Shown in pieces: positions 38,996 to 57,404 of a DNA stretch of 64,000 bases. Source of the stretch: an uncultured Ignavibacteriales bacterium (GTDB taxonomy: Bacteria > Bacteroidota > Ignavibacteria > Ignavibacteriales > Ignavibacteriaceae); contig CAWIAG010000004.1 of assembly GCA_963834015.1 (NCBI GenBank), forward strand, positions 1,749,926-1,813,925. Direction: 5' to 3'. Numbering within the stretch: position 1 is the stretch's first letter; each line of letters opens with the position of its first letter. The notes beneath the pieces are model-generated. The model was not told where the DNA came from. It worked only from the letters and a program-made list of their open reading frames with translations, and searched no databases. A program made the translations under genes and the position numbers.

Positions 38996-41359
38996 TTAAT
39001 TCGTTTTAACCAATCCTTTTATCATATCAATTAATTCTTTTTTATAGAACGGTTTGGCTAGATAGCTTGTAAATCCCTGCTCCAGGAACATTCTTTTATG
39101 CTTCTCGGAAGCATAGCCGGTAATTGCGATTGAGGGAGTTTCCCGATAATTATCCAACTGCCTGATTTGTTTTAAGACTTCTATCCCGGACATGCCCTGG
39201 CCAAGGTTGATGTCTATAAGGAGCAGATCAAAGTTTGAATTTTTTGCACGATTAACCGCCTCTTCGCCGTTATTAACTGAAGATATCTCCCAGTATTTTT
39301 TTAAAAACATCTCTACTACCTCTACATTCAACAAGTTATCCTCAACAAGTAGTATTTTTAATTGTCTATTAAGGAGCGATTCCAGCGATGATAAATTGAT
39401 ACCCGTGCCAGTTACCGTAGTGGGCTTATTATTAAAAGGGATGTTACATTTATTAACAGGGATGAGTACTGAAAAATTCGATCCCTTGTGCCATTCACTT
39501 TCAACCAGGATTTTAATTCCCAATAATTGGGCCATCCTGTTGGCTAATGATAAGCCTAATCCCAATCCTTCAAATTCCCGGTGGAAGCCTTCGCTTACCT
39601 GCCTGAACTTCCGGAAGATAATCTCGTAATTTTCCTTTTTTATACCTATGCCCGTATCTTTCACATTAATTAATGTAAATTCATTTCCCTCATATCTAAT
39701 CTCATTATTTAATTCAACACGAACAATACCCGTTTTAGTATACTTAATTGCATTTTCAACCAGGTTGGAAATGATACCGTATAAAAGATATTCATCGCTT
39801 ATTATTTTAATCCCGTTTTGCGGGATGTCAAGTTCAAATTGCAGATTTTTTTCGGCTGCCCTCTGTTCATAAGATGATTTGAGAGTTGTGCAGAAAAAAT
39901 TCAAATCAATTTCTTTATAATTCGGTCTATAGTTTTTACTTTCAAGCTCCGTGGAGGCAAGTATTAAATTCAAAGTTTGCAAAAGGCGCTTCCCGGAGAG
40001 TGTAATTTTTTCAATTATTAAAGACAACTCAAGATTCTTTTCATTTTCCGATAGCAGTTGAGCAAAACCGAGAACTGCATTTAACGGTGTTCTTAGTTCG
40101 TGCGATATGTTGGCGATAAGCAGGGATTTTGTTTTATTCGCTTCTTCCGCCTCACCTTTAGATTCTATCAGTTCCGCCTCAATTTTTTTGCGGTTTGTTA
40201 TATCATCTTCCACAGAAAGGAAATGGGTAATTACACCTTCATCATTTCTAACCGGTGATACAGACACAGACACAGGGCAGTATTCTCCCGATTTCTTCTT
40301 GATCTCCAGTTCCCCTTTCCAGTTATTGCCTGCAAGGATAGTGTTACAAAGGTCTTTGTAAAGTTCTTCCGTTTGCCGGTCTGATTTAAATATCCGGGGA
40401 GACTGCCCTATCAATTCTTCTTTCTCAAAACCGGTCAACCCGGTCATTTGCTTGTTACTGTAAATGATCTGCCCGTTAATACCGGTTAAAAAAATACCCG
40501 ACGAAATTTGTTCAAGGGCAGTTGAAAGTAAACGGAGCTGTTCATTTGCGGATTTTGATTCGGAAATTTCATACTGGGTGTATTTTTCTTCCAATTCTTT
40601 TAACTTATTTTCTGCCGATTTTCTTAATTGAATTTCATCCTGTAAATTGTTGATCGTATGCTCGAAAAGAATATTTTTTTCCTTAACAAGCATACTGAGC
40701 TCATCGTTCACTCTTTCCATGTCATGTATTTTTTTCCTATGAAGAGAGACATTGCTGCATGTACCGTATAACCGGGTTATAAAGGGCATGTTTGACTCCC
40801 GCACCGGGAAAAACGAAAAATTATACCATGCAATATTTCTTGTGCCGTGCAGGAGCCTTATCTCCACAAATTTTCTTTCCCCGTTTATAGCCTCTGCCAG
40901 GGCCTCCTGAAAATAAGAATAATCGTCATAATGAAGAACGTTTCTGCTTAAATCAACATCCAGTAATGTTTCAAACGGGTACCCCATTTGATCTGAAAAA
41001 TTTTTATTTATCCATTCCAATTTCAAATTGTTTTTGCCGGAAACTATGATTGAAAAGATAAAATCGGTAAAAAGCCCTGTGATAAAATTTAAACGTTCCT
41101 GAACAGATGCATATTGTTCTATCCTGGTGTTTATTCCATTAATTTCATCTTTCAATTTTTTTATAATGGATTTTGCTTCAGTAATTTTTTCAGCTTGAGA
41201 ATTTATGATCAGTTCCTTTTCATTCTCTGAATTTTTGTTATTGCCTACTTCGGGATTTTTACCCGGGGCCAGGTTAATTCCGTTATTATTCACATTTTTT
41301 GAACTTTCATCTTTTGAACTCATATTCTCCCGCCTATTCTTTTGTAAATTTATTTTCAT
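38996..41359 (-). CDS. Hybrid sensor histidine kinase (coiled coil, PAS domains, HisKA, HATPase_c, C-terminal receiver)
   Basis: H-box ISHELRTPLNAV, G-boxes DTGIGI and GLGLGLSLANRM, receiver KILLVEDN...LLLIDINL. PAS-like segments include GIFLTGINGQIIYSN. Confidence 0.9.
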   Translation of the reverse strand: MKINLQKNRRENMSSKDESSKNVNNNGINLAPGKNPEVGNNKNSENEKELIINSQAEKITEAKSIIKKLKDEINGINTRIEQYASVQERLNFITGLFTDFIFSIIVSGKNNLKLEWINKNFSDQMGYPFETLLDVDLSRNVLHYDDYSYFQEALAEAINGERKFVEIRLLHGTRNIAWYNFSFFPVRESNMPFITRLYGTCSNVSLHRKKIHDMERVNDELSMLVKEKNILFEHTINNLQDEIQLRKSAENKLKELEEKYTQYEISESKSANEQLRLLSTALEQISSGIFLTGINGQIIYSNKQMTGLTGFEKEELIGQSPRIFKSDRQTEELYKDLCNTILAGNNWKGELEIKKKSGEYCPVSVSVSPVRNDEGVITHFLSVEDDITNRKKIEAELIESKGEAEEANKTKSLLIANISHELRTPLNAVLGFAQLLSENEKNLELSLIIEKITLSGKRLLQTLNLILASTELESKNYRPNYKEIDLNFFCTTLKSSYEQRAAEKNLQFELDIPQNGIKIISDEYLLYGIISNLVENAIKYTKTGIVRVELNNEIRYEGNEFTLINVKDTGIGIKKENYEIIFRKFRQVSEGFHREFEGLGLGLSLANRMAQLLGIKILVESEWHKGSNFSVLIPVNKCNIPFNNKPTTVTGTGINLSSLESLLNRQLKILLVEDNLLNVEVVEMFLKKYWEISSVNNGEEAVNRAKNSNFDLLLIDINLGQGMSGIEVLKQIRQLDNYRETPSIAITGYASEKHKRMFLEQGFTSYLAKPFYKKELIDMIKGLVKTN

Positions 41360-41624: not shown

Positions 41625-41671
41625 GTTATAAAGAAATCATTAACACCGCGATAAATTGCGGTGTTAATGAT
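41625..41671 (-). terminator. Terminator-like hairpin after the PKD-repeat gene
   Basis: A 15-bp stem pairs aatcattaacaccgc (41634-41648) with gcggtgttaatgatt (41657-41671). On the minus strand it is followed by tctttataa. Confidence 0.55.
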
Positions 41672-41693
41672 TAAGCACAGGGGATAAGGGAAA

Positions 41694-44600
41694 TTATTCC
41701 CTGACTTTTACTGTTAAGTTAAATGATTTCTTAACCCTGCCGCAGACTGTACCGGTTTGGTCGTCAACAAGCAGTTCAACTTTATATATTCCTTCTTGTT
41801 TATATTTATGAAATACAATCGGCAAAGCAGATGATTCACCATCCCCAAATTTCCAGACTATCTTTAATAAATTCCCATCGGCATCGACCACGTTGGATGC
41901 ATCGAATTTAACTTCGTCATTTGCACTGTTTATATAAACAACAGAATCCTGCAATTCAGGAATCTGAGGCGGTTCAACTGCATAAACCAGTGTTGAATCA
42001 CTATAAAAAATATTATTCATTCCATCGCTCAAAACAAAATAGTAAATATATTTACCGCTTTTCTGAACAGAATGATTTAATATCCTGCTATCGGAGTTAA
42101 ATAAACCGTTTTTGCCGTTCCATTTAAATTTAAACTCGGCGTCTTTAAATTCCGTTCGAATTACCGGGTTTACGGTAAACATCTCCCCGGCACAAACATT
42201 GATAGATTTGGGAATAGAGCAATCCGGATAATTAATTACTTTCAGGTACTTTGTAGATTCACTAATGCTGTTTTGAGTATTTAATTTGTCTTTGACCACC
42301 AGCCTTATCTTATTTAAACCTGTGCGGCTGAAAATCGTTTTAAATTCAGCTTCATGTGAAACATCAACATCATTTACATACCATTCAAAATCAAGTTCAC
42401 CGCCGGAGTTGGAAGATTTGCTTCCATCCAGTTCAATCTGTTCATTTACAAATAAGTATTCAGGCAGTGAAAAATCAGCAACAGGCTCATCAAAAATATT
42501 TAAATAAATTGTATCCCTGTCGGTGTTATTCTCAACATTTGTATTATCGGTAACTGTTAAAATAACCCTGTACTTCCCTTTGAAAGAATAGGAATGCAAT
42601 ACGGAAATTCCTTTACCGGTAGAGCCGTCGCCGAAATCCCAAATATATTTGGATATACTACCGTCGGGGTCAAATGATTTTTTACCGTCAAATGAAACCG
42701 GTTGATAAACTGCAGCCGTTTGTACAGAACCTATTTTTGCAACCGGGGGAGCATTAACAGAAACCGGCTTTAAAAATAAAGCGGAACTGCATTCATTTTT
42801 AGAATCCGTTTGAATTCTAAGAGTTACGGTAAAATTGCCGGACTTTGAATAGGTGTGGTTTACAACTTTTCCTTTTGTGTAAGAACTATCACCAAAATCC
42901 CAGTTATAATCTGTAATGTTTCCCACACTAGTTGAACTGGAAGATGCATCAAATACCTGCAAAGAATTCTGAGGAATGGAATCGCATGAAGCAAACGAAG
43001 CATAAGGAGCGTCCACAACCGTAACGGTTATCTTATCTAAAGATGTATTATCGCAGCTTCCTTTTTCATTTCCCGTAATCGTGAGCGTAACTTTATATTT
43101 GCCCGTCTTATAGTATGTGTGAACAGGCCTTGCCCCGGCGCCGGTTTCGCCATCGCCGAAATCCCAATCATAGCTTGCAATGGTTCCTCCGGCAGCGGTG
43201 GATTTAGAACCGTCAAATTTAATTTGTGAATTGGCACAAATAATAGTATCGCTGCCCGCGTTTGCAATAGGCGCTTCGTTAACATTCAAAAGTTTTGTAG
43301 TAATAGCCGAACTGCAGGCTAAACCGGAATTATCGGTTACTGTTAAAATAACTTTATGCGCCCCGCCTTTTTTGAATACTTTAAATACACTGCTTCCTGA
43401 TAAATGGGAAGAATCATCAAACGACCATAAATAATCCAGTTGAGTATTGTCGAAAGACCTGGATTTTAAACCGTTCAATATTACTATATCGCCGGCACAA
43501 ACTGTAGTATCAGCTCCTGCATCAGCAACAGGAGGGCGGTGAATTTTTACTGTAATGTTTTTCTTTACGGAAGAATTAGACAAGTTAAGCCCGTCGTTTA
43601 CCGTTAATGTAACCGGAAAAACACCGTAGTCCTTAAAATTATGAGTAATAATTCCGCTTCCCAGAACTTCCTTTTGATCCGGGAAAGTCCAGGAGTAGCT
43701 CAACTGGTCGCCGTCCGGATCGTATGAACCCGAGGCATCAAAAGTAATTATTTTATTGCACGATTCAATATATTCCTGTGTCTTTATAACAGGCGGCGTG
43801 TTGATCTTTATGTATATTGTGTCCGGGACATTAGAATTGGCAACACCGGCATTGTCGGTAACAGTTAAAACTGCGCAGTACAAACCCGATTTATTGAATG
43901 ACCTTTCTACTACTTTTCCTGTTTTCATCAAGCCGTCGCTGAATACCCATGAATAGAATTTTATAGTACCATCGACATCGTATGATTTGGAGGCATCAAA
44001 CCTTAACTTTTGATTCGGGACGGCGATGGCAGTATATTCAATTTTAGGAACCGGCGGCGAGTTGACTATTACTTTTGCATAATCCACACTTGATAAAGGC
44101 TTAACAAAATCATCTGTAACTTCAAGCCCTACTGTATAAGTTCCGGGTTCTTTGAATGCATATTCAAACCGTCTGCCTTCCGAAATGAATTTATTATCTA
44201 CAAACCACCTGCTTTTGAGGGCTCTTCCATCGGGATCAACGGAGCGCGAGCTGCTGAAGCTAACCGTTTGTCCCGGGGCAACCACCTGGTCCGGGCCTAT
44301 ATCCGCAACCGGCCTTCTATCTATTATTACTTTTGAAGTATCAAAAGCAGAATTATTCTTTGCTTCGGTATTATCATATACCTGCAGTGTAACAGTGTAA
44401 GCACCGGCTGTTCTGTAAGTATGCGAAACTGTTTTCCCTTCATCAGTATAGCCGTCTCCAAAATCCCAGATATATCTTGTAATAGTGCCGTCTACATCGT
44501 AAGATTTTGAACCGTCAAAAACTGCATAACCGTTGTTCAGGTACTGATCATTTACAATTTTTGCAACAGGCTGCGCATTAACCGTGATTTCAACAGAGTC

Positions 44601-46472
44601 AATATTAGTATCGGTAACGGTTTCCGAATTATCCCTGACTTTTAATGAGACTATATATTTACCGTATTTAGGATAACTGTGGTAAACTTTTATGCCGCTG
44701 GCTATGGTTCCATCCCCAAAATTCCATTCGAAGTTATTAATTTTATAGCCCTCTGTTGTAGATTTTGAACCGTCAAACAATAGATTTTCATCAGTTGCCA
44801 CAACCCTGTTGGAACCAAGATTGGGAACAGGCTGGTTATGAATTACAACGTTTACGAATGCCGACGAAGTATTATTTGATGCATCGGTATTATCTTTAAC
44901 TGTTAATTTTACCTTGTAACTTCCGGTTTCAGAGAAGCTTTGTGTAACAATTTTTCCTTCTTTTTTACCGAGGGTTCCGAAATCCCAAATATACTGCACA
45001 ATATTTCCATCAGGGTCAAAGCTGGGCGAAGCATCAAAAGTTAACGGTTGACCAGGGGGAGCAGTAAGCCTTTCTTTTGTCTTTGCGACAGGCTGCATAT
45101 TAATGAATATTGAAATGCCGGTTGTATCAAGATTACAAACCTGTTTGGAAGTTTCTTCAACCGTTAGAACAACTGAATACCTGCCCGGATTTTTATAAGT
45201 ATGTAATACTTTAATTCCGCTGCCTGTCTCACCGTCTCCAAAAGACCAGGTATACTTTGTAAGATTGGGATTGTTTACAACTGATTTACTTCCGTCGAAT
45301 TGGACCTTCTCATTAAGCGCCCTGACCAAATCGGTGCCGGCATCAGCTTTTGGTTTAGGCAATATATTAACTTCGTAAGGTTCCAGTTTTGCGCGGGTGA
45401 TAGCATTTGACTGTTCTTCCACCAAAACTTCTTCGTTATATTTTCCCGGGCCGGGAAATTCCTGCCAACATATATCACCATTGCATTTTGCAGCCGGCCC
45501 GTCAGGCCAGTTAAAAATTAAACCATAATTTTCAGGTGAATTTGTGCCCGAAAAATCGAGTTCGGCGCTAAAGCAGCCGGTTTGTTTTATTTGCTTTACT
45601 ATGTTGGGTATAGTTGCCGGTACTTTATTATAGTAAGGCAGTTGAATGGGAAGTTTTTTCCCCTGCTTGTCTGTGAAATAAAAAGTTATATCATTTATAC
45701 TGTGCATTTCAGGGCCGAAATCGAGAGCACATAAATTACCCCTTTCATATTTACTCAAAGGAACTTTTATGCTTGACCAATTTTGGGGATCATTTTCAGT
45801 CAATGGAATTCCATCCCGGAGCAGAGTACTCAGGGCGATATTAGTGCCGTCAAAATCAAAGGTATGAATATTTATTTCGTCATCATTCTTGCCGGGCATG
45901 GTTATAAAAGAAACCTTCATTGGATTTTTCGCCAGTTGAATTGTCGGCTCATAAGAATAAAACTTTACATTATTTATTGTCCTGTTCTGGGATGGTTCGG
46001 AACTGATAAACAATTCAAATACGTTGCCGTCATGGCCTTCGATGCCCTGGGAAACCAGAGTATATACAGACCCGGAATCATTGGGGACACCTGCAAGCAA
46101 TGCCCAGCGTTCAAGATATTTTTTATCATTGCCTACTTCAATTTGTTTAATCAAACTGCTTTGTATTCTTGCCTTAAAATCACCGGGGCTTAACAAGCTG
46201 TCTTCCGGAATTTCACCTTTGTAAAGAGAGAACCGGAACTTAGAATCCCAATTTCCAATTCGTTCATCTAAAGAAGAGCCGCATGCAGCATCAAAAATCC
46301 TGACATAGGCCATACCTTTATAGCCGGCCGGCAGTTTAAAATGAATGGCCTGAATATAGTTGTCATCGCCTTCACCCGGGCTAGCCTGGGGGCCGAAATT
46401 TATAAATCTTAACCTTGTTTGAGCGTTTACAATAAGAGGCAGTAATAACAATAGTAAAAGTAATTTTTTCAT
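41694..46472 (-). CDS. Secreted 1592-aa protein: unknown N-terminal region of about 370 aa followed by about 13 PKD-type Ig repeats
   Basis: Signal peptide MKKLLLLLLLLPLIVNAQ. W(D/S/N)FGDG..G motifs recur with a period of about 90 aa. Confidence 0.85.
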   Translation of the reverse strand: MKKLLLLLLLLPLIVNAQTRLRFINFGPQASPGEGDDNYIQAIHFKLPAGYKGMAYVRIFDAACGSSLDERIGNWDSKFRFSLYKGEIPEDSLLSPGDFKARIQSSLIKQIEVGNDKKYLERWALLAGVPNDSGSVYTLVSQGIEGHDGNVFELFISSEPSQNRTINNVKFYSYEPTIQLAKNPMKVSFITMPGKNDDEINIHTFDFDGTNIALSTLLRDGIPLTENDPQNWSSIKVPLSKYERGNLCALDFGPEMHSINDITFYFTDKQGKKLPIQLPYYNKVPATIPNIVKQIKQTGCFSAELDFSGTNSPENYGLIFNWPDGPAAKCNGDICWQEFPGPGKYNEEVLVEEQSNAITRAKLEPYEVNILPKPKADAGTDLVRALNEKVQFDGSKSVVNNPNLTKYTWSFGDGETGSGIKVLHTYKNPGRYSVVLTVEETSKQVCNLDTTGISIFINMQPVAKTKERLTAPPGQPLTFDASPSFDPDGNIVQYIWDFGTLGKKEGKIVTQSFSETGSYKVKLTVKDNTDASNNTSSAFVNVVIHNQPVPNLGSNRVVATDENLLFDGSKSTTEGYKINNFEWNFGDGTIASGIKVYHSYPKYGKYIVSLKVRDNSETVTDTNIDSVEITVNAQPVAKIVNDQYLNNGYAVFDGSKSYDVDGTITRYIWDFGDGYTDEGKTVSHTYRTAGAYTVTLQVYDNTEAKNNSAFDTSKVIIDRRPVADIGPDQVVAPGQTVSFSSSRSVDPDGRALKSRWFVDNKFISEGRRFEYAFKEPGTYTVGLEVTDDFVKPLSSVDYAKVIVNSPPVPKIEYTAIAVPNQKLRFDASKSYDVDGTIKFYSWVFSDGLMKTGKVVERSFNKSGLYCAVLTVTDNAGVANSNVPDTIYIKINTPPVIKTQEYIESCNKIITFDASGSYDPDGDQLSYSWTFPDQKEVLGSGIITHNFKDYGVFPVTLTVNDGLNLSNSSVKKNITVKIHRPPVADAGADTTVCAGDIVILNGLKSRSFDNTQLDYLWSFDDSSHLSGSSVFKVFKKGGAHKVILTVTDNSGLACSSAITTKLLNVNEAPIANAGSDTIICANSQIKFDGSKSTAAGGTIASYDWDFGDGETGAGARPVHTYYKTGKYKVTLTITGNEKGSCDNTSLDKITVTVVDAPYASFASCDSIPQNSLQVFDASSSSTSVGNITDYNWDFGDSSYTKGKVVNHTYSKSGNFTVTLRIQTDSKNECSSALFLKPVSVNAPPVAKIGSVQTAAVYQPVSFDGKKSFDPDGSISKYIWDFGDGSTGKGISVLHSYSFKGKYRVILTVTDNTNVENNTDRDTIYLNIFDEPVADFSLPEYLFVNEQIELDGSKSSNSGGELDFEWYVNDVDVSHEAEFKTIFSRTGLNKIRLVVKDKLNTQNSISESTKYLKVINYPDCSIPKSINVCAGEMFTVNPVIRTEFKDAEFKFKWNGKNGLFNSDSRILNHSVQKSGKYIYYFVLSDGMNNIFYSDSTLVYAVEPPQIPELQDSVVYINSANDEVKFDASNVVDADGNLLKIVWKFGDGESSALPIVFHKYKQEGIYKVELLVDDQTGTVCGRVKKSFNLTVKVRE

Positions 46473-46482
46473 CTTTGTGTCC

Positions 46483-48801
46483 CTAATTTTTATTTAGCAA
46501 CAAGTAAGTTTTTTTGTTATTTAATTTATCTTCAAGTGTAACCGATTTAATCCGGGGCTTAATGTTATCTGCGCACATAAATGTCAGCTCATAAAGCCCG
46601 GCAGCGGAATTATAAGGCAGAATTTCGGTAAGCCTACTGCCATTTAAACTTAGTTCAACTTCAGCCGATTTACTTAGGCCTGTTTCATCATCAGCCTTAA
46701 CGCTAATTTGATAAAGATTATCGCCTATAATTTTTATATCCGATGATATTAACTTAGGAGGCTGGTCATCGCAAATGATTTTCTTTTCCAATGATTTAAT
46801 ATTTCCGTCTTTATTAACCGCCTCAATTGTAAAGGTGTTGTTAAAGCCGGTTAAATCCTGGGGGGAGTTGAATTCATTTTTTTCATTTAACGGAATTTTA
46901 ACTCCATTAATAAATAATTCTTCAGCACCTAAAACTTTGCCGCTAATGTTTATCTTTTTGTGATTAACAAAAGAAGGTACCGAAGGGTCAAGGATAATTT
47001 CAATGTTTTCGCTTTTCTTCAATACATTAAATGTTGAACTTTTTTCGAACCCGGCGGGTGTGATAACATTAATTAAAAATATTTCACCCAAATTATAAAA
47101 TGGAATTGAAAAATCACATTTGCCCAGAGAATCCGAGTAAGCAGTATATAACGATTGAGAATTTAATGATTCAACCCGAACGCGGGACAGGGGCCGTGTT
47201 GATAAATTAAGATTTAAAATATTTTTGGATGTATAATATGTTGAACTGCGGGTCAAGTCGCCGAAAACCGAATCCGATATTTTAATTTCGGGATCGGACT
47301 CAACAATAACTTTTCTATATATAGTGGTTGCATTACCGATTGGATTTTTTGACTCAATTTCAATTGTATTTTTACCTTCATTTAAAACTAAATCATATTC
47401 AAAACTGCCGTCAGTGCCTGTTACAACTTTATTATGGTTGACTAAAACCTTGCACCCGGAATTGGTTTTGCCTGTTATCTTCAGGCCTGTACTCCGCGAA
47501 ATAAAATTATCTGCGGGAAAATAAATATTTAAAAACGGTTTTGCCGTATCATGTAATATTATAACCGACCTGATCTCCGAAAATGGCCCGGGCAAACCCA
47601 GGCTGTCCACCGAACAAACATGCCAGTAATAAACGCCGGGCTTCAGCCCTGAAATTTCCAGCGAGCTGCCGGTATTTTTGTTGTATGATTTATCCACTAT
47701 TTTAAATGTTCCCGTGGTTGAAATTTCCATCGAATAATCAGGTACACCCGGGGCATTCTGCCAGTTAAATTTTACATTATTCCCTGTAACAGAAGAAAAA
47801 TCTTCCGGGTAGATTAATTCCGGCGGGGGGATTAATTTCCTTGGCTTTGACGGGTAACCGCCGTTAGGAATAACAGAACCCTGGTTTTTCTTTACGATAA
47901 CCGACGAATCCTTTACGCCGAGTGTAATTTCGCCGTTGTAATTTGCCAGCTTTGCATTTGCATTATTTTTTTCGATCCAAAAATATTTAGAGTTGATTTT
48001 TGTCCTTACGCCGGGAATATCAAGGTCGAATTTTTTCTTAGGGCTGTTCAAAAGCATTGCATAAGCATTACCTTTTTCAAGTTTAATTTTTGTATCGGTA
48101 TTATTCCCTATAACATCAACGCGGGATATTTGTATCTCTGCCTCCGAATTTTCATAAAGCTTGATCTGGCTTAGGTCATTAAAAGTAATATTAGCTAATG
48201 ATAAAGATAAAGTTCTTGCCCAGTCATTCTCTTTCAGGTTGTCGTATAGTTGGGCATTCTCCCAGTTTAAAACCGAAGGGAACATTTTTTGGACCGTGCC
48301 TTTTTTATACGAAATTACGGCATCCAAAGTTTTTTCTCTTATTTCCATTGTCTGGTTGTATGCTTTTTTTGCAAGTTTCACGGCTTCTATCAGATAATCA
48401 TGGGATGCATCAAAATCCAGGGAATTTTTAGCTTTTAATGCGTCATAATAATTACCTGATGATTTTTCCAAAAGATCGGGAGAGAGAATTTTAGCGCCTG
48501 CTTTAACTGCATCCTGTATGCTCCTGGAAGCATCATCAAACAATTCCAATAAATCTTTTACTTTCTTTTGTGGAATTGTTACCTCAACAGGTGATTGAAC
48601 GCTGCTTAGATCTTTGATGTTATTATATTTCAGTATATAAGTCCAAAGATCAGGATCGCTGAAATAATCCCGGGCTAACTTTCGCACGTCGGTCTGGTTG
48701 GTAATTGTAACCCGGATATTATCTTTTGTCTGAGCATTCAGGCTGAAGTATTGAAGCAGCATAAATGACAAAGCGGCGAATAAAATAATTTTACGAAACA
48801 T
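46483..48801 (-). CDS. Secreted LysM-like / FecR-like / Ig-fold multidomain protein
   Basis: Signal peptide. LysM-like segment VRKLARDYFSDPDLWTYILKYNNIKDLSSVQSPVEVTIP. FecR-like segment ISYKKGTVQKM...WENAQLYDNLKENDWARTLSLSLANITFNDLSQIKLYENSEAEI...KLEKGNAY. Fn3/Big-like C-terminal repeats. Confidence 0.55.
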   Translation of the reverse strand: MFRKIILFAALSFMLLQYFSLNAQTKDNIRVTITNQTDVRKLARDYFSDPDLWTYILKYNNIKDLSSVQSPVEVTIPQKKVKDLLELFDDASRSIQDAVKAGAKILSPDLLEKSSGNYYDALKAKNSLDFDASHDYLIEAVKLAKKAYNQTMEIREKTLDAVISYKKGTVQKMFPSVLNWENAQLYDNLKENDWARTLSLSLANITFNDLSQIKLYENSEAEIQISRVDVIGNNTDTKIKLEKGNAYAMLLNSPKKKFDLDIPGVRTKINSKYFWIEKNNANAKLANYNGEITLGVKDSSVIVKKNQGSVIPNGGYPSKPRKLIPPPELIYPEDFSSVTGNNVKFNWQNAPGVPDYSMEISTTGTFKIVDKSYNKNTGSSLEISGLKPGVYYWHVCSVDSLGLPGPFSEIRSVIILHDTAKPFLNIYFPADNFISRSTGLKITGKTNSGCKVLVNHNKVVTGTDGSFEYDLVLNEGKNTIEIESKNPIGNATTIYRKVIVESDPEIKISDSVFGDLTRSSTYYTSKNILNLNLSTRPLSRVRVESLNSQSLYTAYSDSLGKCDFSIPFYNLGEIFLINVITPAGFEKSSTFNVLKKSENIEIILDPSVPSFVNHKKINISGKVLGAEELFINGVKIPLNEKNEFNSPQDLTGFNNTFTIEAVNKDGNIKSLEKKIICDDQPPKLISSDIKIIGDNLYQISVKADDETGLSKSAEVELSLNGSRLTEILPYNSAAGLYELTFMCADNIKPRIKSVTLEDKLNNKKTYLLLNKN

Positions 48802-48803
48802 TT

Positions 48804-50741
48804 TTAAACCTCATTGAATACCGGTAGTGAAATAATAAATTCCGCACCATTACCTTTTTCACTCTTAAGCATTATCTCTCCATGCATTAACTCAACAAGT
48901 TTTTTTACAATTGATAATCCCAACCCTGTTGAAAAATCCCCGCCTACAGGCTGTGCTGAGAGCCGGGCAAACTTTTGGAATACTTTTGTTTTATCTTCTT
49001 CTGTAAAGCCGGGCCCCTCGTCTTTTATTCGTGTTTCAACCATCCTGCAATCTTCTGATAAGCCGATAGATATAAAAATATTTTTATTAACCGACGAAAA
49101 TTTTATTGCATTGGATAAAACGTTTTGAATTACCTGAAAAGTTAAATTGTTATCAGCAAAAACATCTTTCACATCATTATTATAGTTATCAATTATTGCC
49201 AGATTTTTTTGTGAAATATTTTCCAGGTTTTGTTTTTTAAGTTCCGTAATAAGAGGGATTAAAGAAACTTTTTCCGGTTTAATATTTATTTTACCCTGTT
49301 CAATCGTGTTAATATCCAGCAAATCTTTAATAATCAAAGACATCCGGTTCGAGGTTTTAATTATAGCGCTTAAAAATTCATTCTGCTGTTCCCCTGAAAT
49401 ATCTTCATCATGTTTTAACGTATCGGCAAAGGAACTTATGGCAAACAAAGGATTTTTTAAATCATGTGCGGCGATAGCTAAGAATTCATCCTTTTCTTCG
49501 TTTAACTCCAAAACCCTTTTATATGCTTTTTTTAATTCTAAATTTGATTCTTTCAACTCATTCGTCCTGTCTTCAACTTTTTTCTCTAAGTTTTTATTAT
49601 ACTCTTCCAATTGTTCTTTTTGATCTGCAATCTCCGCGAAATTCCTTTTCAACTGTTTACTCATCTTTGAAAGCGATTCATTTAATAATCCTATTGAATC
49701 CTTAGCTTTATAATCCACGCTTACATCAAAATTTCCGCTGCTAATGAGTGTGGACGCTTTCGCCATATTTATAATAGGGCGGCTGAGATGCTTTGAGAAA
49801 AGTATGGCAACAATAACAGACAGTATTACACTGATCCCTGCAAAAAATAAGAAAAAGAGAAGAGCCTGGTTAACAACCGCATAGGCAGAACTTTTGCTGA
49901 TAATTGAAACAACAACCCAGTTAACAGCTTCCGCCGGTGAGAAAGAGGAAACAAAATTACCAAGCTGCGGATCCGAATAATTATTTACCAAAGCAACTTT
50001 GTTTTTATTATTTACTAATGATTGTGCATCTGCTATTATTTGATCAGGCAGTTGCAATAAAAAATTATTAGTTAAAAATTTCTTGCCTGTAGCATCAGTT
50101 ACAAACAAGGTTCCGATCCTGTTTAATAAATGGTTTTCAAGATCGGAAACTATATCACGGAGGTCTAGCTGGCAGACCAAATATGACGATGAGGATTTAT
50201 TCAATTTAACGCCGGTAACTTCCCAGCAAATCCATGTTTCCAGAGCTTTATTATATACGGGAGTTGAGATAAAAGGAAGCTTGCGGTTTTTAATATCAAA
50301 AATACCGGGGTCAATTTTTTCCTGTGAACTGTCTACGGGAATAATTTCCCTGCCGCCTTTTTTAAGAAAATCCTTTCCTGTAAAAAATGCCTGGTTATAA
50401 CTACCGTTGTTATCCATAAAAAGCGAAATTGAAATAATATTATCTATTTTTCTTATATTTGAGATCATAAATTCTATTTTTTCGTTGGCAGAGATATCAG
50501 GATTCTCAATGGTACTTTTAATTAAGTCCTGAATTTCAAGAGATTTATTTATTTTAGAATTTATGCTTGAAGAAATTGCGTTGGATGAGAAAATTAATTT
50601 TTCATTTATATTACCTCTCAATTCATTTAAAATGAGGGAAGTAATACTGTAACTAATTAATAAGCCCGGCAGTATAGCCATCAATAGCATTAATATTCCC
50701 AGCTTTATCTGCCAGGGTATCCCATTTAATCGAATTGTCAC
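48804..50741 (-). CDS. Membrane sensor histidine kinase (periplasmic Cache-like domain, HAMP, HisKA, HATPase_c)
   Basis: Two TM segments flank a loop of about 260 aa. HAMP-like segment RPIINMAKASTLISSGNFD, H-box AAHDLKNPL, G2 box GLGLSIVKKLVELMHG. Its stop lies 3 nt from the next gene. Confidence 0.9.
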   Translation of the reverse strand: MTIRLNGIPWQIKLGILMLLMAILPGLLISYSITSLILNELRGNINEKLIFSSNAISSSINSKINKSLEIQDLIKSTIENPDISANEKIEFMISNIRKIDNIISISLFMDNNGSYNQAFFTGKDFLKKGGREIIPVDSSQEKIDPGIFDIKNRKLPFISTPVYNKALETWICWEVTGVKLNKSSSSYLVCQLDLRDIVSDLENHLLNRIGTLFVTDATGKKFLTNNFLLQLPDQIIADAQSLVNNKNKVALVNNYSDPQLGNFVSSFSPAEAVNWVVVSIISKSSAYAVVNQALLFFLFFAGISVILSVIVAILFSKHLSRPIINMAKASTLISSGNFDVSVDYKAKDSIGLLNESLSKMSKQLKRNFAEIADQKEQLEEYNKNLEKKVEDRTNELKESNLELKKAYKRVLELNEEKDEFLAIAAHDLKNPLFAISSFADTLKHDEDISGEQQNEFLSAIIKTSNRMSLIIKDLLDINTIEQGKINIKPEKVSLIPLITELKKQNLENISQKNLAIIDNYNNDVKDVFADNNLTFQVIQNVLSNAIKFSSVNKNIFISIGLSEDCRMVETRIKDEGPGFTEEDKTKVFQKFARLSAQPVGGDFSTGLGLSIVKKLVELMHGEIMLKSEKGNGAEFIISLPVFNEV

Positions 50742-50790
50742 TTTAAGTTTCTATAAAGTTGTAGATTCGATTTAAATATAACTTTTTTTT

Positions 50791-51438
50791 ATGATAAAAA
50801 TAATTGTTGTAGACGACCATCCGATGCTTCGCGCCGGGCTGGTTCAAACTATCAGCCGGGAGCCCGATCTTAAGGTCCTTGATGAATGCGGTAACGGGGA
50901 GGAACTGATCTCAAAAATAACCGGAAACGAGTATGACGTTGTAGTGCTGGACATTGACTTACCAGGGCGAAACGGGATTGAAATATTAAAAGAAGTAAAA
51001 AAGATAAATCCAAAGCTTTCCGTCCTAATTTTGAGCTCATTTCCTGAAGAAAGATATGGTGTGCGCGCCATCAAGGCAGGTGCAAATGCTTATCTTACAA
51101 AGGGGGACGATACAAAAATAATAGTTGAAACAATAAGAGGAATTAAAGGCAATAAAAGAAAAATATCACCTAAACTGGCTGAAATTCTTGCAAATGAATT
51201 AAATGACATATCGGATAAACTACCTCACGAACGATTATCGGACAGGGAACTTGAAGTGATGAGGCATATTGCGCTGGGGAAGTCTACAAGTGAAATCGCC
51301 GTTTTGCTCTCACTCAGTGTGAATACGGTAAACACATACCGTGCAAGGATATTAGAAAAGATGTGCTTTAGTTCAAATACGCAGATAGCTATTTATGCTT
51401 TGGAGAATGGGCTTCTTGACAAAGCTTCACGAAGCTGA
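50791..51438 (+). CDS. NarL/LuxR-type response regulator
   Basis: Receiver IIVVDDHPMLR...VVVLDIDLPGRNG plus LuxR HTH LSDRELEVMRHIALGKSTSEIAVLLSLSVNTVNTYRARILEKM. It is divergent from the kinase by 49 bp. Confidence 0.9.
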   Translation: MIKIIVVDDHPMLRAGLVQTISREPDLKVLDECGNGEELISKITGNEYDVVVLDIDLPGRNGIEILKEVKKINPKLSVLILSSFPEERYGVRAIKAGANAYLTKGDDTKIIVETIRGIKGNKRKISPKLAEILANELNDISDKLPHERLSDRELEVMRHIALGKSTSEIAVLLSLSVNTVNTYRARILEKMCFSSNTQIAIYALENGLLDKASRS

Positions 51439-51487
51439 GATTATAAATAAAACATTAGTTAAGCTACCTCTAAACAATAGAATATAT

Positions 51488-52420
51488 ATGAATAATAAAA
51501 AAATTACTTTCGCATTAGTTCTTGCATTGTTATTTGCCGGAACGGCTTTTTCTCAACAAAAGATATATGATGAACATGTTTTTGTTTATAAAGTTGTGCA
51601 GGGGGATGAAATAAAGGCAAATATATTTGTCCCCAAAACGGGGCGCAGGCATCCCGTATATATATACTTCCACGGAGGCGGATTTATATTCGGCAACCGG
51701 GATAACGGGCTGCCGGATGCATTGCGGGATAAACTGATTGAGCATGATTATGCTGTCGTATCCGCAGATTACAGGCTGGCGCCTGAAACAAAACTTGCCG
51801 GGATTACGGAAGACGTAAGGGATGTTGTAAACTGGATTAGAGAGAACGGCGCAAAGCAATTTCAAATTGATGAAAATAAAATTGCAGTATCGGGAGGTTC
51901 GGCAGGGGGGTACCTTGCAATTACTGCGGGGTATAATGTAAATCCACCGGTGCAGGCAATAGTTGAAATATCGGCACCAACCGGGTTTACAAGTATGAGT
52001 ACACAAATGGGCGATACATCAATCCTGAAGCAGCCTGGCCCTTATGATATTGTTAAGGACCCGATAGTTTCATACGGTGATTATTCCACCAGGGTGGATT
52101 TGTGGCGGTTCCTTTCGAAAAACAGATTAGGGCTTTATGAAATTTTTGGTTTTGATGTAACGCAAGACAGCGTCCGCCTTCAAAATTACACTCTCTCCAA
52201 TCATATTAAAAAAGGATATCCACCAACGCTCATTGTGCATGCTAAAAATGATCATCTTGTAGATTTTTTGCAGGCGGAAAAATTTTATAATTTACTTCAG
52301 GAGAAGGGAGTTGAATCGGAATTGTTCACAGTAGAGAACGGGCATTCCGAGGAAGTAATAAATAATTATCCTGAAGTTGTGGATAAAATTATTAAATTTT
52401 TGGATGCACGTTTGAGATAG
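51488..52420 (+). CDS. Secreted alpha/beta-hydrolase (esterase/lipase, HGGG class)
   Basis: Oxyanion motif FHGGGF and nucleophile elbow GGSAGG. I moved the start to ATG 51488 (MNNKKITFALVLALLFAGTAFSQ); the track start is 51395. Confidence 0.8.
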   Translation: MNNKKITFALVLALLFAGTAFSQQKIYDEHVFVYKVVQGDEIKANIFVPKTGRRHPVYIYFHGGGFIFGNRDNGLPDALRDKLIEHDYAVVSADYRLAPETKLAGITEDVRDVVNWIRENGAKQFQIDENKIAVSGGSAGGYLAITAGYNVNPPVQAIVEISAPTGFTSMSTQMGDTSILKQPGPYDIVKDPIVSYGDYSTRVDLWRFLSKNRLGLYEIFGFDVTQDSVRLQNYTLSNHIKKGYPPTLIVHAKNDHLVDFLQAEKFYNLLQEKGVESELFTVENGHSEEVINNYPEVVDKIIKFLDARLR

Positions 52421-52769: not shown

Positions 52770-55700
52770 ATGATTCGATCTATAGTACTGAGTTTTTTGT
52801 TTTGCAGTTTACTTCTTGCTTCATCCGGGGTTAAAGAGAGGCGTTATGCACCCGGCGAAATTATTATTAAATATGAAAAGGTAGGGCAAAGAGCAAGGGG
52901 GTCAGAGATAATAACCCAGCATAAAAGCTTTGTTGATAATTTAGAACTAAACATGAAGGGTTTAAAAATAAAAAGTTACTCTCCTGTTTTCAAAAGTTTA
53001 ATTAGGGAAATGACTGACAAAAATCTTACCGAGCAGGAGGTAGTTGAGAATAAAGCTGTTACCAAAAAAAATAAAACATCATCATCTTTTATTAAAAAAA
53101 TAACTTTCTCAAATATCCTTTTACTCAAAATTGATTCAGTAGCAGATATCTTAGAGTTAGCTTCAACTCTAAATAATAACCGAGATTTATTGGCCTCAGA
53201 GGGAATGAGAATTGTTTACGCCGAACCGAATTATTTAAAAAAGACAAGTGTAAACCCGAATGATCCTTTGTATCCTCTGCAATGGTCCTATCGAATAACT
53301 GATGTAGCTAATGCCTGGGATACTACGGAGGGAAGTCCTAATATTAAGATTGCAATTGTTGATACAGGAGTTGATCCAACACATCCGGATTTAATTGCAA
53401 ATCTTATTCAGGGCTATAATTTTGTTAATATCGATACAGACTACTACAAACAAGATTCTAATATAACCTTACTTCCGGGAGAAATTTATACGCAACCCGG
53501 ACCTAATTGTACCGACTATAATGGTCATGGGACTCACTGTGCAGGTATTGCTGCGGCAGCCGGAAATAATGGAATCGGAATTATCGGTGTAGCTCCAAAT
53601 TGTAAGATTATGCCTGTTAGAGCTGGTTTTAGTCTTATGGTTGATGGACAGGAGGAAGGTGTTCTTGAAACTACTTCTATCGTGGAAGGAATTAATTATG
53701 CAGTGGATAATGGTGCAAATGTAATTAGTATGAGTTTTGGTGGCGATAGTTCGAACCTTGAAGAAGAAGCTATTCAGAATGCTTATTACAACAATGTAGT
53801 CTTAGTTGCTGCTGCAGGGAACAACAGTTCATCTGAAAAGTTTTATCCGGCTGGATACAGTGAAGTATTAGCAATAACATCAGTAGATTCAACCAGGTCC
53901 GCTTCTTCATTTACTGAATATGGATATTGGACGTCTGTTGCAGCACCTGGAGAAAATATAATTTCAACTGTACCGTTAACTGGAGGTATCCTTACCGATC
54001 CATCCGGTTATAAGGTATTATCCGGAACTTCAATGGCGTCTCCTTTCGTTGCCGGTGAAGTTGCATTAATTTTATCGCACAATCCTTCTTTATCCAATAA
54101 TCTAATATATCAAATAGTCAGAACTGCAGTTAGTTCGTACTATGCGAGTAATAATTATATAGGTACCGGAATCGTTGATGTAGATAAAGCTTTTATAGGA
54201 ACCGGAGCTTGTATAGCAAAAATTACTGTTCCGTATAATATAAACAATCTGTATATATCCAAGGGAAATATAAGTATTTCCGGAAGAGCATCAGGGTTAT
54301 TATTCCGTAATTATTATTTGCAATACTCAGATTATCAAAATTCAACTGCGATCTGGCAGTCCGCAGGACAAATTTATACTACTCAGGTTGATAGCGGTTA
54401 CCTTGGAACTGTTAGTATAGCACAACCGGGGGTTTATTATATAAGGCTGGTAGTTACAAGCACTAACAATATACAGTATACAGATATAATCGGACCTGTT
54501 ACAGTTGATAACAGATTGAAATCCAATTGGCCGGTTTCAACAGGATCTCCCATCGGTTCTACGCCGGTACTTTCGGATATCTATGGGGACGGGAATGTTG
54601 AGGTAATATTTACAAGTTCAAACGGTGAAATCTATGTTGTAGATCAGAATGGCAATAATAAACCTGGCTGGCCTGTAACATTACCTAATTCCAGTTCTAA
54701 ATCCCAAGTTGGTTATACAAGCCCGGCAGTTGGGGATCTGGACAATGACGGTAAAAAAGAAATAGCAGTGAGAGACGGTCAGTTTATTTATGTATATAAA
54801 AATGATGGTACCATGAGGAATGGATGGCCGGTATCTTTAGGTACAAATATATTTTCGGGAAATGCAATAGTAGGCTCACCCACTATTGCTGATATTAATA
54901 ATGATGGTTATAAAGAAATACTTGTAACATCTCTTAATGGTAAAATATTTGCATTCGATCGTAATGGTTACATTATTTCCGGCTGGCCGGTATCAGTACC
55001 GATTAATTCTGTATGGGCTACTTTGTATTCAACTCCAGTAGTATCAGATATAAAAGGTGATGGTAACGTTGAAATAATAATCCAATGCATTGATGAGTCT
55101 TCCGCTAATTCTATTGGCTACCTATATGTATTTGATAATTTTGGAAATGTTCTTCCCGGCTGGCCGCAAACAATAGGAGGGGGATCATGGACTTCCCCTA
55201 TAACTGCAGATATAAACAATGATGGGCAAAATGAAATAATTGCATCTTCATTTTTGCCGTCCGGTTCTTCATCAGGTTCAATAGGTCTTTACGTTTTTAA
55301 TCCGGCCGGCAGCTTACTAAAAGGATTCCCTGTGCAGTTGAATGATGTGTCCTTTGGATATTATAATATTAAAGCAGGGCTGTCAGCCGGAGATATAAAT
55401 AATGACGGTTATAAAGAAATTATCGTTGCAAGCAGCCAATTGAATTCACTATGGGCGGTTGACAGAAATGGTAAAGTACTCTGGAATTCACAACCAAGCG
55501 AGCCATGGGAGTATAATTTTGCGTCGGTTCCAATTATTGCGGATATCAATAATGACGGCAAACCTGAAATATTAGTTTCTAAATACAATAATACAAATCA
55601 AACCGGCAAAATTATTGTTGTTAATAACACCGGGCAAATAATGGAAAGTCTTTCTTGTGTTCTTCCGGAACAGATATGGGCTACTCCTTCTATTGGTGAT

Positions 55701-57404
55701 ATTGAAGGGAATGGCAATCTCGAATTAATTTGCGGGTCTATTCAGGGCAACGTTTTTTGTTGGGACCTGGGTGTACCATTTGATACTACCTTGATGATCT
55801 GGCCTACATATCAGCAAAACTATCAGAGAACCGGGAGTATTGATCTGCTCAAAACCATACCTGCAGTTACTCATTTAACAGAGCCGCCAAATAATGCAGT
55901 TATTCAACCCGGGGAAATTACTTTTTCCTGGAATCCTGTCCCGGGAGCTCTTAAATATAATTTCGAACTATCTGATTCAATTTCTTTTAATGATATTATT
56001 TTTCAGGATACCTCAATGTCAGCAGTATCCCTTATAGTTGATTCAGTCCAGAGCAGCAGTAAGGGATTAAAGGCAGGTCTGAAAAACACCAGGACTGTAA
56101 GTGCAATTAAAAAGTTAATCACGAATGATAAAAAAATTATAGATCCCAAAAAACATCTAACAGGATTGAATGATGGTGTAAGGTATTATTGGAGAGTAGC
56201 TTCATTAGATTTGATAGGATCAAGTCCTTTTTCGGCAATAAATTCATTTTCTACAATTTTAAATGCACCCGGAACACTTTATGCCCTGGCGCTTCCTTCA
56301 GAAAGAGTAGTATTAAACTGGTCCGGTACATCAAACAATAACACGGGATTTATAATACAAAGGAAACTTTCTACAGATACTATCTACACTGTAATTGATA
56401 CTGTTAAAACAGATACAATCAGTTTTACAGATACAACATTGACATCAATAAATACGTATAATTACAGAATAGAGGCATATAATCAAATAGAAACTTCTGC
56501 ATTCAGCAATGTAGTAACAATAGCAACCCTTCCGCCTTACCCAGCCGCACCTACATTAATAGCTCCAATAAACAATGCATCTATCCTTACAGGTAGTTTA
56601 TATTTAAGCTGGATTAGTTCTGCGAATGCAAGCAGCTACCGGTTACAGGTCTCAACAGATTCGACATTTAAAACATTCTTTTTAAATGATTCGGTTCTTA
56701 CTACCACAACATTTCAGGTAACTAATCTGAGTGACGGCTTAAGATATTACTGGAGAGTAAATTCAAAAAATGTTACCGGAATAAGCATATATTCCGGGGT
56801 GAATTCATTTTCAACAATTTTAAATGCACCTCAAAATTTAAGTGCAATTGCAATGTGGGGTTACAAAGTATCACTTACCTGGATAGGCAAAAGCAATGAT
56901 GAATCTGGTTATATAATTGAACGCAAGCTTAGCAAGGATACTTCGTACACAATTATAGACTCATTAAAACTAAAGGTTACAAGTTTTACTGATTCATCGT
57001 TAACAGCAGTAAACACATATAATTATAGGATAACTGCATATAATGCTTTGGGTACTTCAGGATTCAGTAATGTTATAACTGTAAATACAATAACCTCGGT
57101 AGAAAATAAATCCCGTCAGATACCTGTGAACTATGAATTATCCCAAAACTTCCCCAACCCGTTTAATCCAATAACAGTAATAGAATATGGACTACCGGTA
57201 CAAAGCCGGGTAAAGATTGTAGTCTATAATATATTGGGAGAAGTTGTAAAAGAACTTGTAAATTCTGTTCAGAGTGCGGGATACCATTATATGGACTTTG
57301 GAGGGAACATGAGTTCAGGCGTATACTTCTATAAGATAGATGCAAAAGCCGTTAACAACTCAAGGCAGTTCATGCAAATTAAGAAAATGATGCTTTTAAA
57401 ATAA
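52770..57404 (+). CDS. S8 subtilisin-like protease, FG-GAP/VCBS-type propeller, duplicated Fn3-like module and T9SS C-terminal sorting domain (paralog 1, 1544 aa)
   Basis: Catalytic triad contexts VDTGVD, HGTHCAG and SGTSMASP. DINNDGYKEI-type repeats. C-terminus NFPNPFNPITVIEYGLPVQSRVKIVVYNILGE...GVYFYKIDAK. Confidence 0.9.
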   Translation: MIRSIVLSFLFCSLLLASSGVKERRYAPGEIIIKYEKVGQRARGSEIITQHKSFVDNLELNMKGLKIKSYSPVFKSLIREMTDKNLTEQEVVENKAVTKKNKTSSSFIKKITFSNILLLKIDSVADILELASTLNNNRDLLASEGMRIVYAEPNYLKKTSVNPNDPLYPLQWSYRITDVANAWDTTEGSPNIKIAIVDTGVDPTHPDLIANLIQGYNFVNIDTDYYKQDSNITLLPGEIYTQPGPNCTDYNGHGTHCAGIAAAAGNNGIGIIGVAPNCKIMPVRAGFSLMVDGQEEGVLETTSIVEGINYAVDNGANVISMSFGGDSSNLEEEAIQNAYYNNVVLVAAAGNNSSSEKFYPAGYSEVLAITSVDSTRSASSFTEYGYWTSVAAPGENIISTVPLTGGILTDPSGYKVLSGTSMASPFVAGEVALILSHNPSLSNNLIYQIVRTAVSSYYASNNYIGTGIVDVDKAFIGTGACIAKITVPYNINNLYISKGNISISGRASGLLFRNYYLQYSDYQNSTAIWQSAGQIYTTQVDSGYLGTVSIAQPGVYYIRLVVTSTNNIQYTDIIGPVTVDNRLKSNWPVSTGSPIGSTPVLSDIYGDGNVEVIFTSSNGEIYVVDQNGNNKPGWPVTLPNSSSKSQVGYTSPAVGDLDNDGKKEIAVRDGQFIYVYKNDGTMRNGWPVSLGTNIFSGNAIVGSPTIADINNDGYKEILVTSLNGKIFAFDRNGYIISGWPVSVPINSVWATLYSTPVVSDIKGDGNVEIIIQCIDESSANSIGYLYVFDNFGNVLPGWPQTIGGGSWTSPITADINNDGQNEIIASSFLPSGSSSGSIGLYVFNPAGSLLKGFPVQLNDVSFGYYNIKAGLSAGDINNDGYKEIIVASSQLNSLWAVDRNGKVLWNSQPSEPWEYNFASVPIIADINNDGKPEILVSKYNNTNQTGKIIVVNNTGQIMESLSCVLPEQIWATPSIGDIEGNGNLELICGSIQGNVFCWDLGVPFDTTLMIWPTYQQNYQRTGSIDLLKTIPAVTHLTEPPNNAVIQPGEITFSWNPVPGALKYNFELSDSISFNDIIFQDTSMSAVSLIVDSVQSSSKGLKAGLKNTRTVSAIKKLITNDKKIIDPKKHLTGLNDGVRYYWRVASLDLIGSSPFSAINSFSTILNAPGTLYALALPSERVVLNWSGTSNNNTGFIIQRKLSTDTIYTVIDTVKTDTISFTDTTLTSINTYNYRIEAYNQIETSAFSNVVTIATLPPYPAAPTLIAPINNASILTGSLYLSWISSANASSYRLQVSTDSTFKTFFLNDSVLTTTTFQVTNLSDGLRYYWRVNSKNVTGISIYSGVNSFSTILNAPQNLSAIAMWGYKVSLTWIGKSNDESGYIIERKLSKDTSYTIIDSLKLKVTSFTDSSLTAVNTYNYRITAYNALGTSGFSNVITVNTITSVENKSRQIPVNYELSQNFPNPFNPITVIEYGLPVQSRVKIVVYNILGEVVKELVNSVQSAGYHYMDFGGNMSSGVYFYKIDAKAVNNSRQFMQIKKMMLLK

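Follow-up and report, generated by a model that had tools for sequence, protein, structure and literature searches.

A 64,000-nt stretch of DNA from an Ignavibacteriaceae metagenome-assembled genome (MAG), here called the window and used as the frame for all coordinates, encodes a sensor histidine kinase next to two large exported proteins of the cell envelope. The three genes lie on the minus strand. The kinase gene (48804-50741, 645 aa, GTG start) is followed by the gene for a protein with LysM-like, FecR and immunoglobulin (Ig)-like domains, which we call the adaptor (46483-48801, 772 aa), and then by the gene for a protein made mostly of PKD repeats, which we call the giant (41694-46472, 1592 aa). 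A gene for a NarL/GacA-type response regulator (50791-51438, 215 aa) is divergently encoded on the plus strand. Comparison with related loci suggests that the window locus is one copy of a conserved three-part envelope-sensing module, in which the exported proteins sense together with the sensor; we give this reading a probability of about 0.5. NCBI names the two exported proteins just 'FecR domain-containing protein' and 'PKD domain-containing protein'.

The open reading frame (ORF) map gives gaps of 2 nt between adaptor and kinase, 10 nt between giant and adaptor, and 49 nt between kinase and regulator. The coordinates and gaps are identical to those in an earlier note on this DNA, made from sequence alone, which had described three tightly packed minus-strand genes with a regulator divergent by 49 bp. 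The spacer between kinase and regulator (50742-50790) presumably holds a shared promoter and operator sequences. Short divergent spacers separate regulator and sensor in orthologous loci as well (49 nt in the locus numbered L004 below, 79-97 nt in L001). A scan for sigma-70 promoters gave the shuffle background and is uninformative for this lineage. At the other end, a consensus scan finds a terminator-like hairpin with a 15-bp stem (41635-41672, minus strand), 22 nt 3' of the giant's stop codon, which likely marks the 3' end of the three-gene operon; the regional total of such sites equals the shuffle background, and the argument is one of position, not of statistics. Directly downstream of the giant, past the hairpin and on the same strand, is a hybrid PAS-HisKA-HATPase-REC kinase (38996-41359). 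It is kept only in L004, the closest relative, and is probably not part of the module.

The kinase has two transmembrane (TM) segments (aa ~10-39 and ~285-324) that bracket a periplasmic domain of about 250 residues (aa ~36-289; nt 49875-50636), followed by HAMP (aa 315-365; nt 49647-49799) and HisKA/HATPase (aa 417-641; nt 48819-49493) domains, all of the last three called by Pfam (HisKA E 2.6e-15, HATPase_c E 7.9e-23). The HisKA phospho-acceptor His box (H426 in AAHDLKNP) and the N, G1 and G2 boxes of HATPase_c are present (NAIKFS at 544, DEGPGF at 574, GLGLSIV at 606). The periplasmic domain is a divergent dCache_1-like domain, identified at the level of the family profile. The window kinase itself has no Pfam match to a Cache domain even at E<10 and does not reach the gathering score of dCache_1 (PF02743). 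Orthologous sensors score 20-40 bits against a dCache_1 cut-off of 45, with E down to 3.5e-10, all below threshold, and some of these matches cover the model almost from end to end (positions 2-239 of 240). For a profile (A3) built from 17 sensor-region sequences, the eight best matches in the PDB are all dCache ligand-binding domains (E 5e-4 to 1e-2), including PctA (E 5e-4), Mlp24/37, 3c8c and a 'Cache domain protein'. The earlier description of the protein as a Cache kinase thus holds by remote homology of its family, but not by a Pfam match of the window protein. CHASE2 is absent from all 20 sensor proteins scanned, each of which gave dCache_1 or nothing.

The divergent gene encodes a response regulator of the LuxR type, as had been claimed, with a receiver domain (Response_reg, E 6.9e-25) and a GerE/LuxR helix-turn-helix output domain (GerE, E 7.5e-16). 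The acidic pocket (D8/D9), the predicted phospho-acceptor D54 and the K104-region motif are present, and the best NCBIfam match is the UvrY/SirA/GacA family, under its cut-off. The window kinase would most likely phosphorylate this regulator. A divergent NarL-type regulator is found in only 19 of the related loci, all from Ignavibacteria/Melioribacter, and this conserved pairing lends the phosphotransfer indirect support.

The adaptor begins with a hydrophobic signal peptide (aa 1-23). An AlphaFold2 (AF2) model of it, made with 26 homologues (confidence score, pLDDT, 86.4), divides the remainder into a LysM-like domain of beta-alpha-alpha-beta topology (aa 29-76; nt 48574-48717), a 3-helix bundle (aa 78-155; nt 48337-48570), a beta-rich domain with the FecR fold (aa 161-312; nt 47866-48321), an FN3-like domain (aa 325-415) and four Ig-like domains (aa 420-767), the last five forming a block at nt 46501-47829. 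Pfam calls FecR (PF04773) at aa 196-292 with 28.9 bits against a gathering cut-off of 24, and the modelled domain has the FecR/PupR fold. The FecR-like domain, on which the earlier note had staked its proposal in advance, is therefore borne out by both the hidden Markov model and the structure. The Ig repeats of that note correspond to a Pfam match to the Ig-like Glucodextran_B and to the four Ig-like domains of the model. Its LysM-like region agrees with the AF2 topology and with the adaptor family profile, which at aa 24-81 matches LysM chains of the PDB (E 4.5e-4). The window adaptor itself gets no LysM call from Pfam; precomputed Pfam LysM assignments exist for two homologues (P0047 and P0061). 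The adaptor is thus an exported protein with a LysM domain, at the level of profile and model, followed by a FecR domain. Its homologues are full-length and collinear, down to ~35% identity in Ignavibacteria and at 28-29% in Desulfobacterota.

The giant has a hydrophobic signal peptide at its N-terminus, two tandem beta-sandwiches resembling PPC/collagen-binding domains (aa 20-294; nt 45591-46415) and a head-to-tail array of PKD units (aa 295-1591; nt 41700-45590), ending one residue past the last unit (aa 1591 of 1592). Pfam calls PKD_4 in 13 stretches (E 5.4e-248), the source of the earlier count of about 13 repeats, but a self-profile resolves 15 contiguous units of ~87 aa, two of them degenerate. 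The Pfam assignments in all four proteins are far above chance level. Among 14 full-length orthologues drawn from all groups, giants measure 1592-1705 aa, and the repeat number is fixed at 15 across phyla. Units 8-10 have a positionally equivalent best match in nearly all of these orthologues (unit 10 in 14/14), and unit 15 has one in most. Such fixed length and unit positions are unlike the variable-number repeats of adhesins.

The N-terminal ~275 aa of the giant have no Pfam match even at E<10. The AF2 model of the region is all-beta (pLDDT 87.8), and the domain resembles the collagen-binding/PPC modules of collagenases. An alignment of 22 sequences contains invariant acidic and glycine motifs, among them G35-D36, D61/G65/D69 (FDxDCGGxxD), W123, G146-D148-N150, D206 and N260; D36 is found in at least 90% of sequences. 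An exhaustive search recovers the domain in 281 representative clusters at E<=1e-3, most of them proteins of ~1600 aa with the domain N-terminal. Word-index searches with the same domain gave 1 and 5 proteins, a method that misses long orthologues; giant homologues were thus taken from the exhaustive representative search and from tblastn on the fetched loci. The domain also occurs in ~300-aa proteins, and in an internal or C-terminal position in a few. These short or variant proteins (P0157, P0160, P0167-P0174, P0187, P0190, P0210 and P0216) are candidate fragments or different architectures.

The adaptor and the giant each start with a hydrophobic signal segment, lack a lipobox Cys and carry no C-terminal sorting domain of the type IX secretion system (T9SS; TIGR04183/PF18962). 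Because these sorting signals are missing, the adaptor and the giant probably stay in the periplasm or envelope.

Related loci were collected in a set of 58, of which 55 (L004-L058) come from a scan of one genome per species and three (L001-L003) from exact look-ups. The set has some redundancy (L001 = L018; L041 is close to L042; L044, L045 and L053 are nearly identical), and its taxonomic labels are those of the deposited MAG records. The sources are Ignavibacteria/Melioribacteraceae, KSB1, Cytophagia, Gemmatimonadota, Desulfobacterales including Desulfonema magnum, Thiocystis violacea, Candidatus (Ca.) Venteria ishoeyi and MAGs labelled Hoeflea; Desulfobacterota and Proteobacteria are thus among the larger groups represented. 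Of the 52 loci with sequence downstream of the adaptor, 48 have the giant there, its N-terminal domain included, and the gap is <300 bp in 46; the FecR adaptor and the PKD giant are the tightest pair. A homologue of the window sensor domain (aa ~5-300) is found with an iterated profile in 42/58 loci, nearly always immediately upstream of the adaptor. The co-occurrence of kinase, FecR and PKD proteins, which the earlier note had set beforehand as a point on which it could fail, is therefore strongly conserved. No gene beyond the module is conserved across the set; the neighbours are unrelated between lineages. That independent genes merely happen to be neighbours is hardly credible, as their order and adjacency persist in at least six groups of phylum rank, each with its own, unrelated flanking genes. 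Pairwise distances of the adaptor, the giant N-terminal domain and the sensor correlate with r = 0.84-0.92 (31 loci), which is consistent with inheritance as a unit.

The sensor domain is joined to four different outputs. It is followed by HisKA/HATPase in ~32 loci, by Guanylate_cyc in five (L035, L041, L042, L050 and L056), by a SpoIIE PP2C phosphatase domain in two (L034 and L058) and by GGDEF-EAL in one (L057, Thiocystis, E 3e-59 to the sensor profile). The sensor homologue in L044 and L053 runs past the end of the locus, and its output is unread. Both PP2C loci have, in addition, genes for a STAS protein and for an RsbW-like protein of partner switching, and the cyclase-type loci cluster together in the distances of all three proteins. 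The conserved unit is thus the dCache-HAMP sensor domain, the FecR adaptor and the PKD giant, not the kinase itself. Retention of one periplasmic sensor domain while its output is swapped among four chemistries is the classic signature of a link on the periplasmic side, and argues that the sensor is connected to the exported proteins there.

Several loci depart from the common layout. OY760517.1, a Melioribacteraceae chromosome, has two paralogous modules, one of regulator, kinase and adaptor without giant (L031) and one of cyclase, adaptor and giant (L035). Tandem genes for FecR-like adaptors (777 and 772 aa) occupy L040:1-5034, with no giant within the next 3.6 kb. In Ca. Venteria ishoeyi a 1040-aa NHL-repeat beta-propeller protein (L043:12488-15610) follows the adaptor in the giant's place, which suggests that the large partner is exchangeable. 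In L044, L045 and L053 the giant is either split or enlarged, with ORFs of 951 and 2110 aa, and a sensor homologue lies ~9 kb downstream, at the locus edge; the Hoeflea label of these records (7.9 Mb and 3.9 Mb) is doubtful given genome size and gene content. Neighbours conserved only within a lineage are, in KSB1 and Cytophagia, a STAS protein together with an ABC-type fusion protein. The adaptor-giant pair of Desulfobacterota is surrounded by genes of cyclic-nucleotide signalling and partner switching. Upstream of it and divergent (L002, L055 and L058) are genes for a RACo-like protein, for a guanylate/adenylate cyclase of 437 aa and for a cNMP-binding/PatA_N protein; the downstream genes (L002, L034, L054 and L058) encode an MBL/Apyc1-like hydrolase, a STAS protein and an RsbW-like kinase as well as a dCache-HAMP-SpoIIE sensor. 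A methyl-accepting chemotaxis protein was considered as a fifth output and rejected: the HAMP-MCPsignal protein of Desulfonema magnum, 1.5 kb downstream of the giant, has a helical sensor that the sensor profile does not match at E<10.

These observations can be assembled into a model of how the module may work. The sensor would couple its divergent dCache_1 periplasmic domain through HAMP to a cytoplasmic output, here a HisKA kinase. The adaptor, exported by the Sec pathway, would be anchored to peptidoglycan by its LysM-like domain and carry a 3-helix bundle, the FecR fold and a stalk of FN3 and four Ig domains. The giant, also Sec-exported and of fixed length, would offer two Ca-type beta-sandwich binding modules and 15 PKD units, with which it may bind or monitor a macromolecular feature, for example a cell-wall or envelope polymer or a captured polymer. 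The adaptor, on peptidoglycan, would then relay the state of the giant to the dCache domain through its FecR-fold domain, and HAMP would switch the cytoplasmic output. This co-sensor reading fits the FecR fold, the precedent of LuxQ and LuxP and the recurrence of FecR proteins beside CHASE2 sensors. The earlier note had proposed that the input of the kinase could be the FecR and PKD proteins rather than a small ligand. Their role as input is the best reading of the comparative data, whether instead of a small ligand or besides one, but their conserved partner is the sensor domain and not the kinase.

A number of points weigh against co-sensing by the exported proteins. Contacts among the three proteins are what we infer from the genes and models, as are the identity of the signal and the way in which it travels, and the periplasmic location is deduced only from absent sorting signals. 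The dCache pocket may also bind a small ligand. The adaptor occurs without the giant in four loci (L031, L033, L040 and L043). Eleven loci with adequate flanks have no adjacent sensor homologue; most are from Desulfobacterota, including Desulfonema magnum, and Ca. Venteria is among them. The correlation of distances could arise from shared vertical descent alone. Finally, adjacency of the sensor to the pair is equally expected if the sensor regulates the pair.

This last point leads to a different account, in which the sensor controls an envelope or surface structure built of adaptor and giant, such as an adhesin or a component of a matrix or sheath, while dCache senses an unrelated small ligand. 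Control could be of synthesis, or of retention by inside-out signalling, as by LapD for LapA. The divergent arrangement of regulator and operon is typical of autoregulated two-component operons, and the Thiocystis sensor has the periplasmic domain-HAMP-GGDEF-EAL architecture of LapD. Modules of the PKD and collagen-binding-domain-like kinds occur widely in adhesins and in proteins that bind polymers. Desulfobacterota, moreover, retain the adaptor-giant pair mostly without an adjacent sensor, so the pair may have a function of its own. However, it is the periplasmic domain that is conserved and not the output, and it is hard to see four unrelated outputs regulating the same two genes while all of them keep this one sensor domain. 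The flanks encode no LapG-type protease, type I secretion system (T1SS) or RTX features, the two proteins have neither a T9SS sorting domain nor an anchor, and the fixed 15 repeats with positionally matching units differ from adhesins of variable length. We regard control of the pair by the sensor as the main alternative, though less likely than co-sensing. Of the dedicated extracytoplasmic sensing or adhesion module that the earlier note had envisaged, sensing agrees with the conserved sensor-adaptor-giant unit, but adhesion has no direct support, and the T9SS sorting domain is missing.

The other genes of the window bear on one more possibility, namely that a surface-exposed giant and adaptor bind an insoluble polysaccharide or protein as a nutrient, report its presence and induce degradative genes. 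The likeness of the giant N-terminal domain to collagenase collagen-binding/PPC modules favours such polymer capture, as does the wealth of secreted hydrolases in the window (GH78 rhamnosidases, two subtilase/FG-GAP proteins and an esterase). One of the subtilase/FG-GAP beta-propeller proteins (52770-57404, 1544 aa, with fn3) carries a T9SS Por_Secre_tail; the adaptor and giant, unlike this neighbouring protease, have no such C-terminal domain and hence no route across the outer membrane. Nor is there a TonB-dependent transducer to carry a signal inward, and the LysM domain indicates peptidoglycan and with it a periplasmic location. Other loci do not keep the flanking hydrolase genes, and the carriers include sulfate reducers and purple sulfur bacteria, whose nutrition is different. 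Capture of nutrient polymers therefore seems quite improbable.

Further genes in the window are recorded here for completeness. A BD-FAE/alpha-beta-hydrolase ORF (51395-52420) overlaps the 3' end of the regulator gene by 44 nt when read from its first ATG; the start is more likely a later Met (MNNKKITF...), after which comes a segment resembling a signal peptide. The second secreted subtilase/FG-GAP beta-propeller protein is at 59625-63053 (1142 aa), and between the two subtilases are tandem DUF1670/HTH paralogues (57460-58302 and 58302-59105) with overlapping stop and start codons. A glycyl-radical enzyme (PFL-like plus Gly_radical, 34143-36389) adjoins a radical-SAM activase (33079-34017).

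A wider proposal may be considered, namely that these modules form a phylum-spanning class of envelope sensors that depend on accessory proteins. The giant and adaptor would be the sensing element and dCache a protein-docking site rather than a small-ligand pocket, with the same head plugged into kinase, cAMP/cGMP, c-di-GMP or partner-switching outputs. What this sensing element reports might concern the cell wall or envelope, in its state or its geometry, or else the fact that a macromolecule has been captured. We offer this wider proposal as a tentative possibility. FecR-domain accessory proteins lie beside CHASE2 sensors in many bacteria, and for none of them is the signal, mechanism or function known. 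The anatomy of the present module is informative in this respect, with its dCache-HAMP sensor, four interchangeable outputs, wall-anchoring adaptor and length-conserved giant with a new binding domain, and it makes the role of FecR accessory proteins of sensors directly testable. Cultured carriers exist in Thiocystis violacea DSM 208 and Desulfonema magnum 4be13. The analysis also defines unannotated families: the N-terminal domain of the giant, which has no Pfam model, and a divergent dCache subfamily that current gathering thresholds miss.

Among known systems, the FecR fold of PupR and FecR serves as a protein-protein relay that contacts the signalling domain of a partner. The module differs from FecA-FecR-FecI and PupB-PupR in that the adaptor has a cleavable signal peptide and LysM in place of the N-terminal cytoplasmic anti-sigma domain and TM helix, and its output runs through a dCache-HAMP sensor. 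No extracytoplasmic function (ECF) sigma factor or TonB-dependent transducer is encoded in the window neighbourhood, and no such clusters are conserved in the related loci.

The proposed docking has a parallel in LuxQ, whose double-PAS/Cache-like periplasmic domain senses through the protein LuxP. In LuxQ-LuxP and TorS-TorT, a Cache/PAS-like domain docks a partner protein that bears the binding site and is encoded in the same operon. The module as we propose it would likewise have a Cache/PAS-like domain that docks a partner from its own operon. The partners here, however, are a wall-anchored multi-domain adaptor and a ~175 kDa beta-sandwich protein instead of small solute-binding proteins.

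The LapD-LapG-LapA system also combines a repeat protein of giant size, an accessory protein in the periplasm and, in the inner membrane, a protein that joins a periplasmic domain and HAMP to cytoplasmic signalling domains. LapD has the architecture periplasmic domain-HAMP-GGDEF-EAL, and the Thiocystis orthologue carries the same HAMP-GGDEF-EAL. Unlike LapA, the giant has a Sec signal peptide, and no LapG-type cysteine protease, T1SS or RTX/C-terminal secretion signal is found in the window flanks or among conserved neighbours (up to 10 kb). Most of the sensors here have enzymatic outputs (kinase, cyclase and PP2C), implying outside-in signalling. The module thus belongs neither to the FecIRA type nor to the Lap systems, and its proteins are not T9SS cargo.

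The closest described systems are LysM-FecR (COG4254) proteins paired with CHASE2 sensors. The Burkholderia 'BiofilmReg' operon encodes a response regulator, a LysM-FecR protein, a CHASE2 kinase and DUF4136 (PMC5192318), and a cluster in Campylobacterota encodes a CHASE2 cyclase, a FecR protein, a phosphodiesterase and a tetratricopeptide repeat protein (PMC9239204). P. aeruginosa PA4035/PA4036 is a further example. MtxA of Magnetospirillum is encoded beside a CHASE2 adenylate cyclase, and deletion of mtxA showed no phenotype (PMC4439547). MtxA resembles the adaptor in that it is exported, is composed of several domains with an Ig-like one among them and has a signalling gene as neighbour, and Desulfobacterota homologues of the adaptor carry weak Pfam MtxA_N matches. 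The identification of the adaptor as MtxA was rejected: the window protein has no MtxA_N match at E<10 and the family profile misses the solved MtxA chain. MtxA is also only ~313 aa long and has no PKD-giant partner, and is kept here as an analogy only.

As in the LysM-FecR/CHASE2 class, an exported LysM and FecR protein shares an operon with a transmembrane sensor whose extracytoplasmic domain is large; kinase and cyclase outputs both occur, and a response regulator adjoins. Unlike that class, the window-type sensor has a dCache_1-like domain and HAMP rather than CHASE2; the adaptor, at about double the length, has a 3-helix bundle, an FN3 domain and four Ig domains; the 1592-aa PKD giant with its novel N-terminal domain is an obligatory third partner here; and the window regulator is of the NarL type rather than the OmpR/CreB type. 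The earlier note had not recognised the three-gene arrangement as a described system, and we likewise found no description of it in the open-access full-text literature. Compared with the LysM-FecR/CHASE2 modules, what is new here is the dCache-HAMP sensor family, the much longer adaptor and the giant as a partner.

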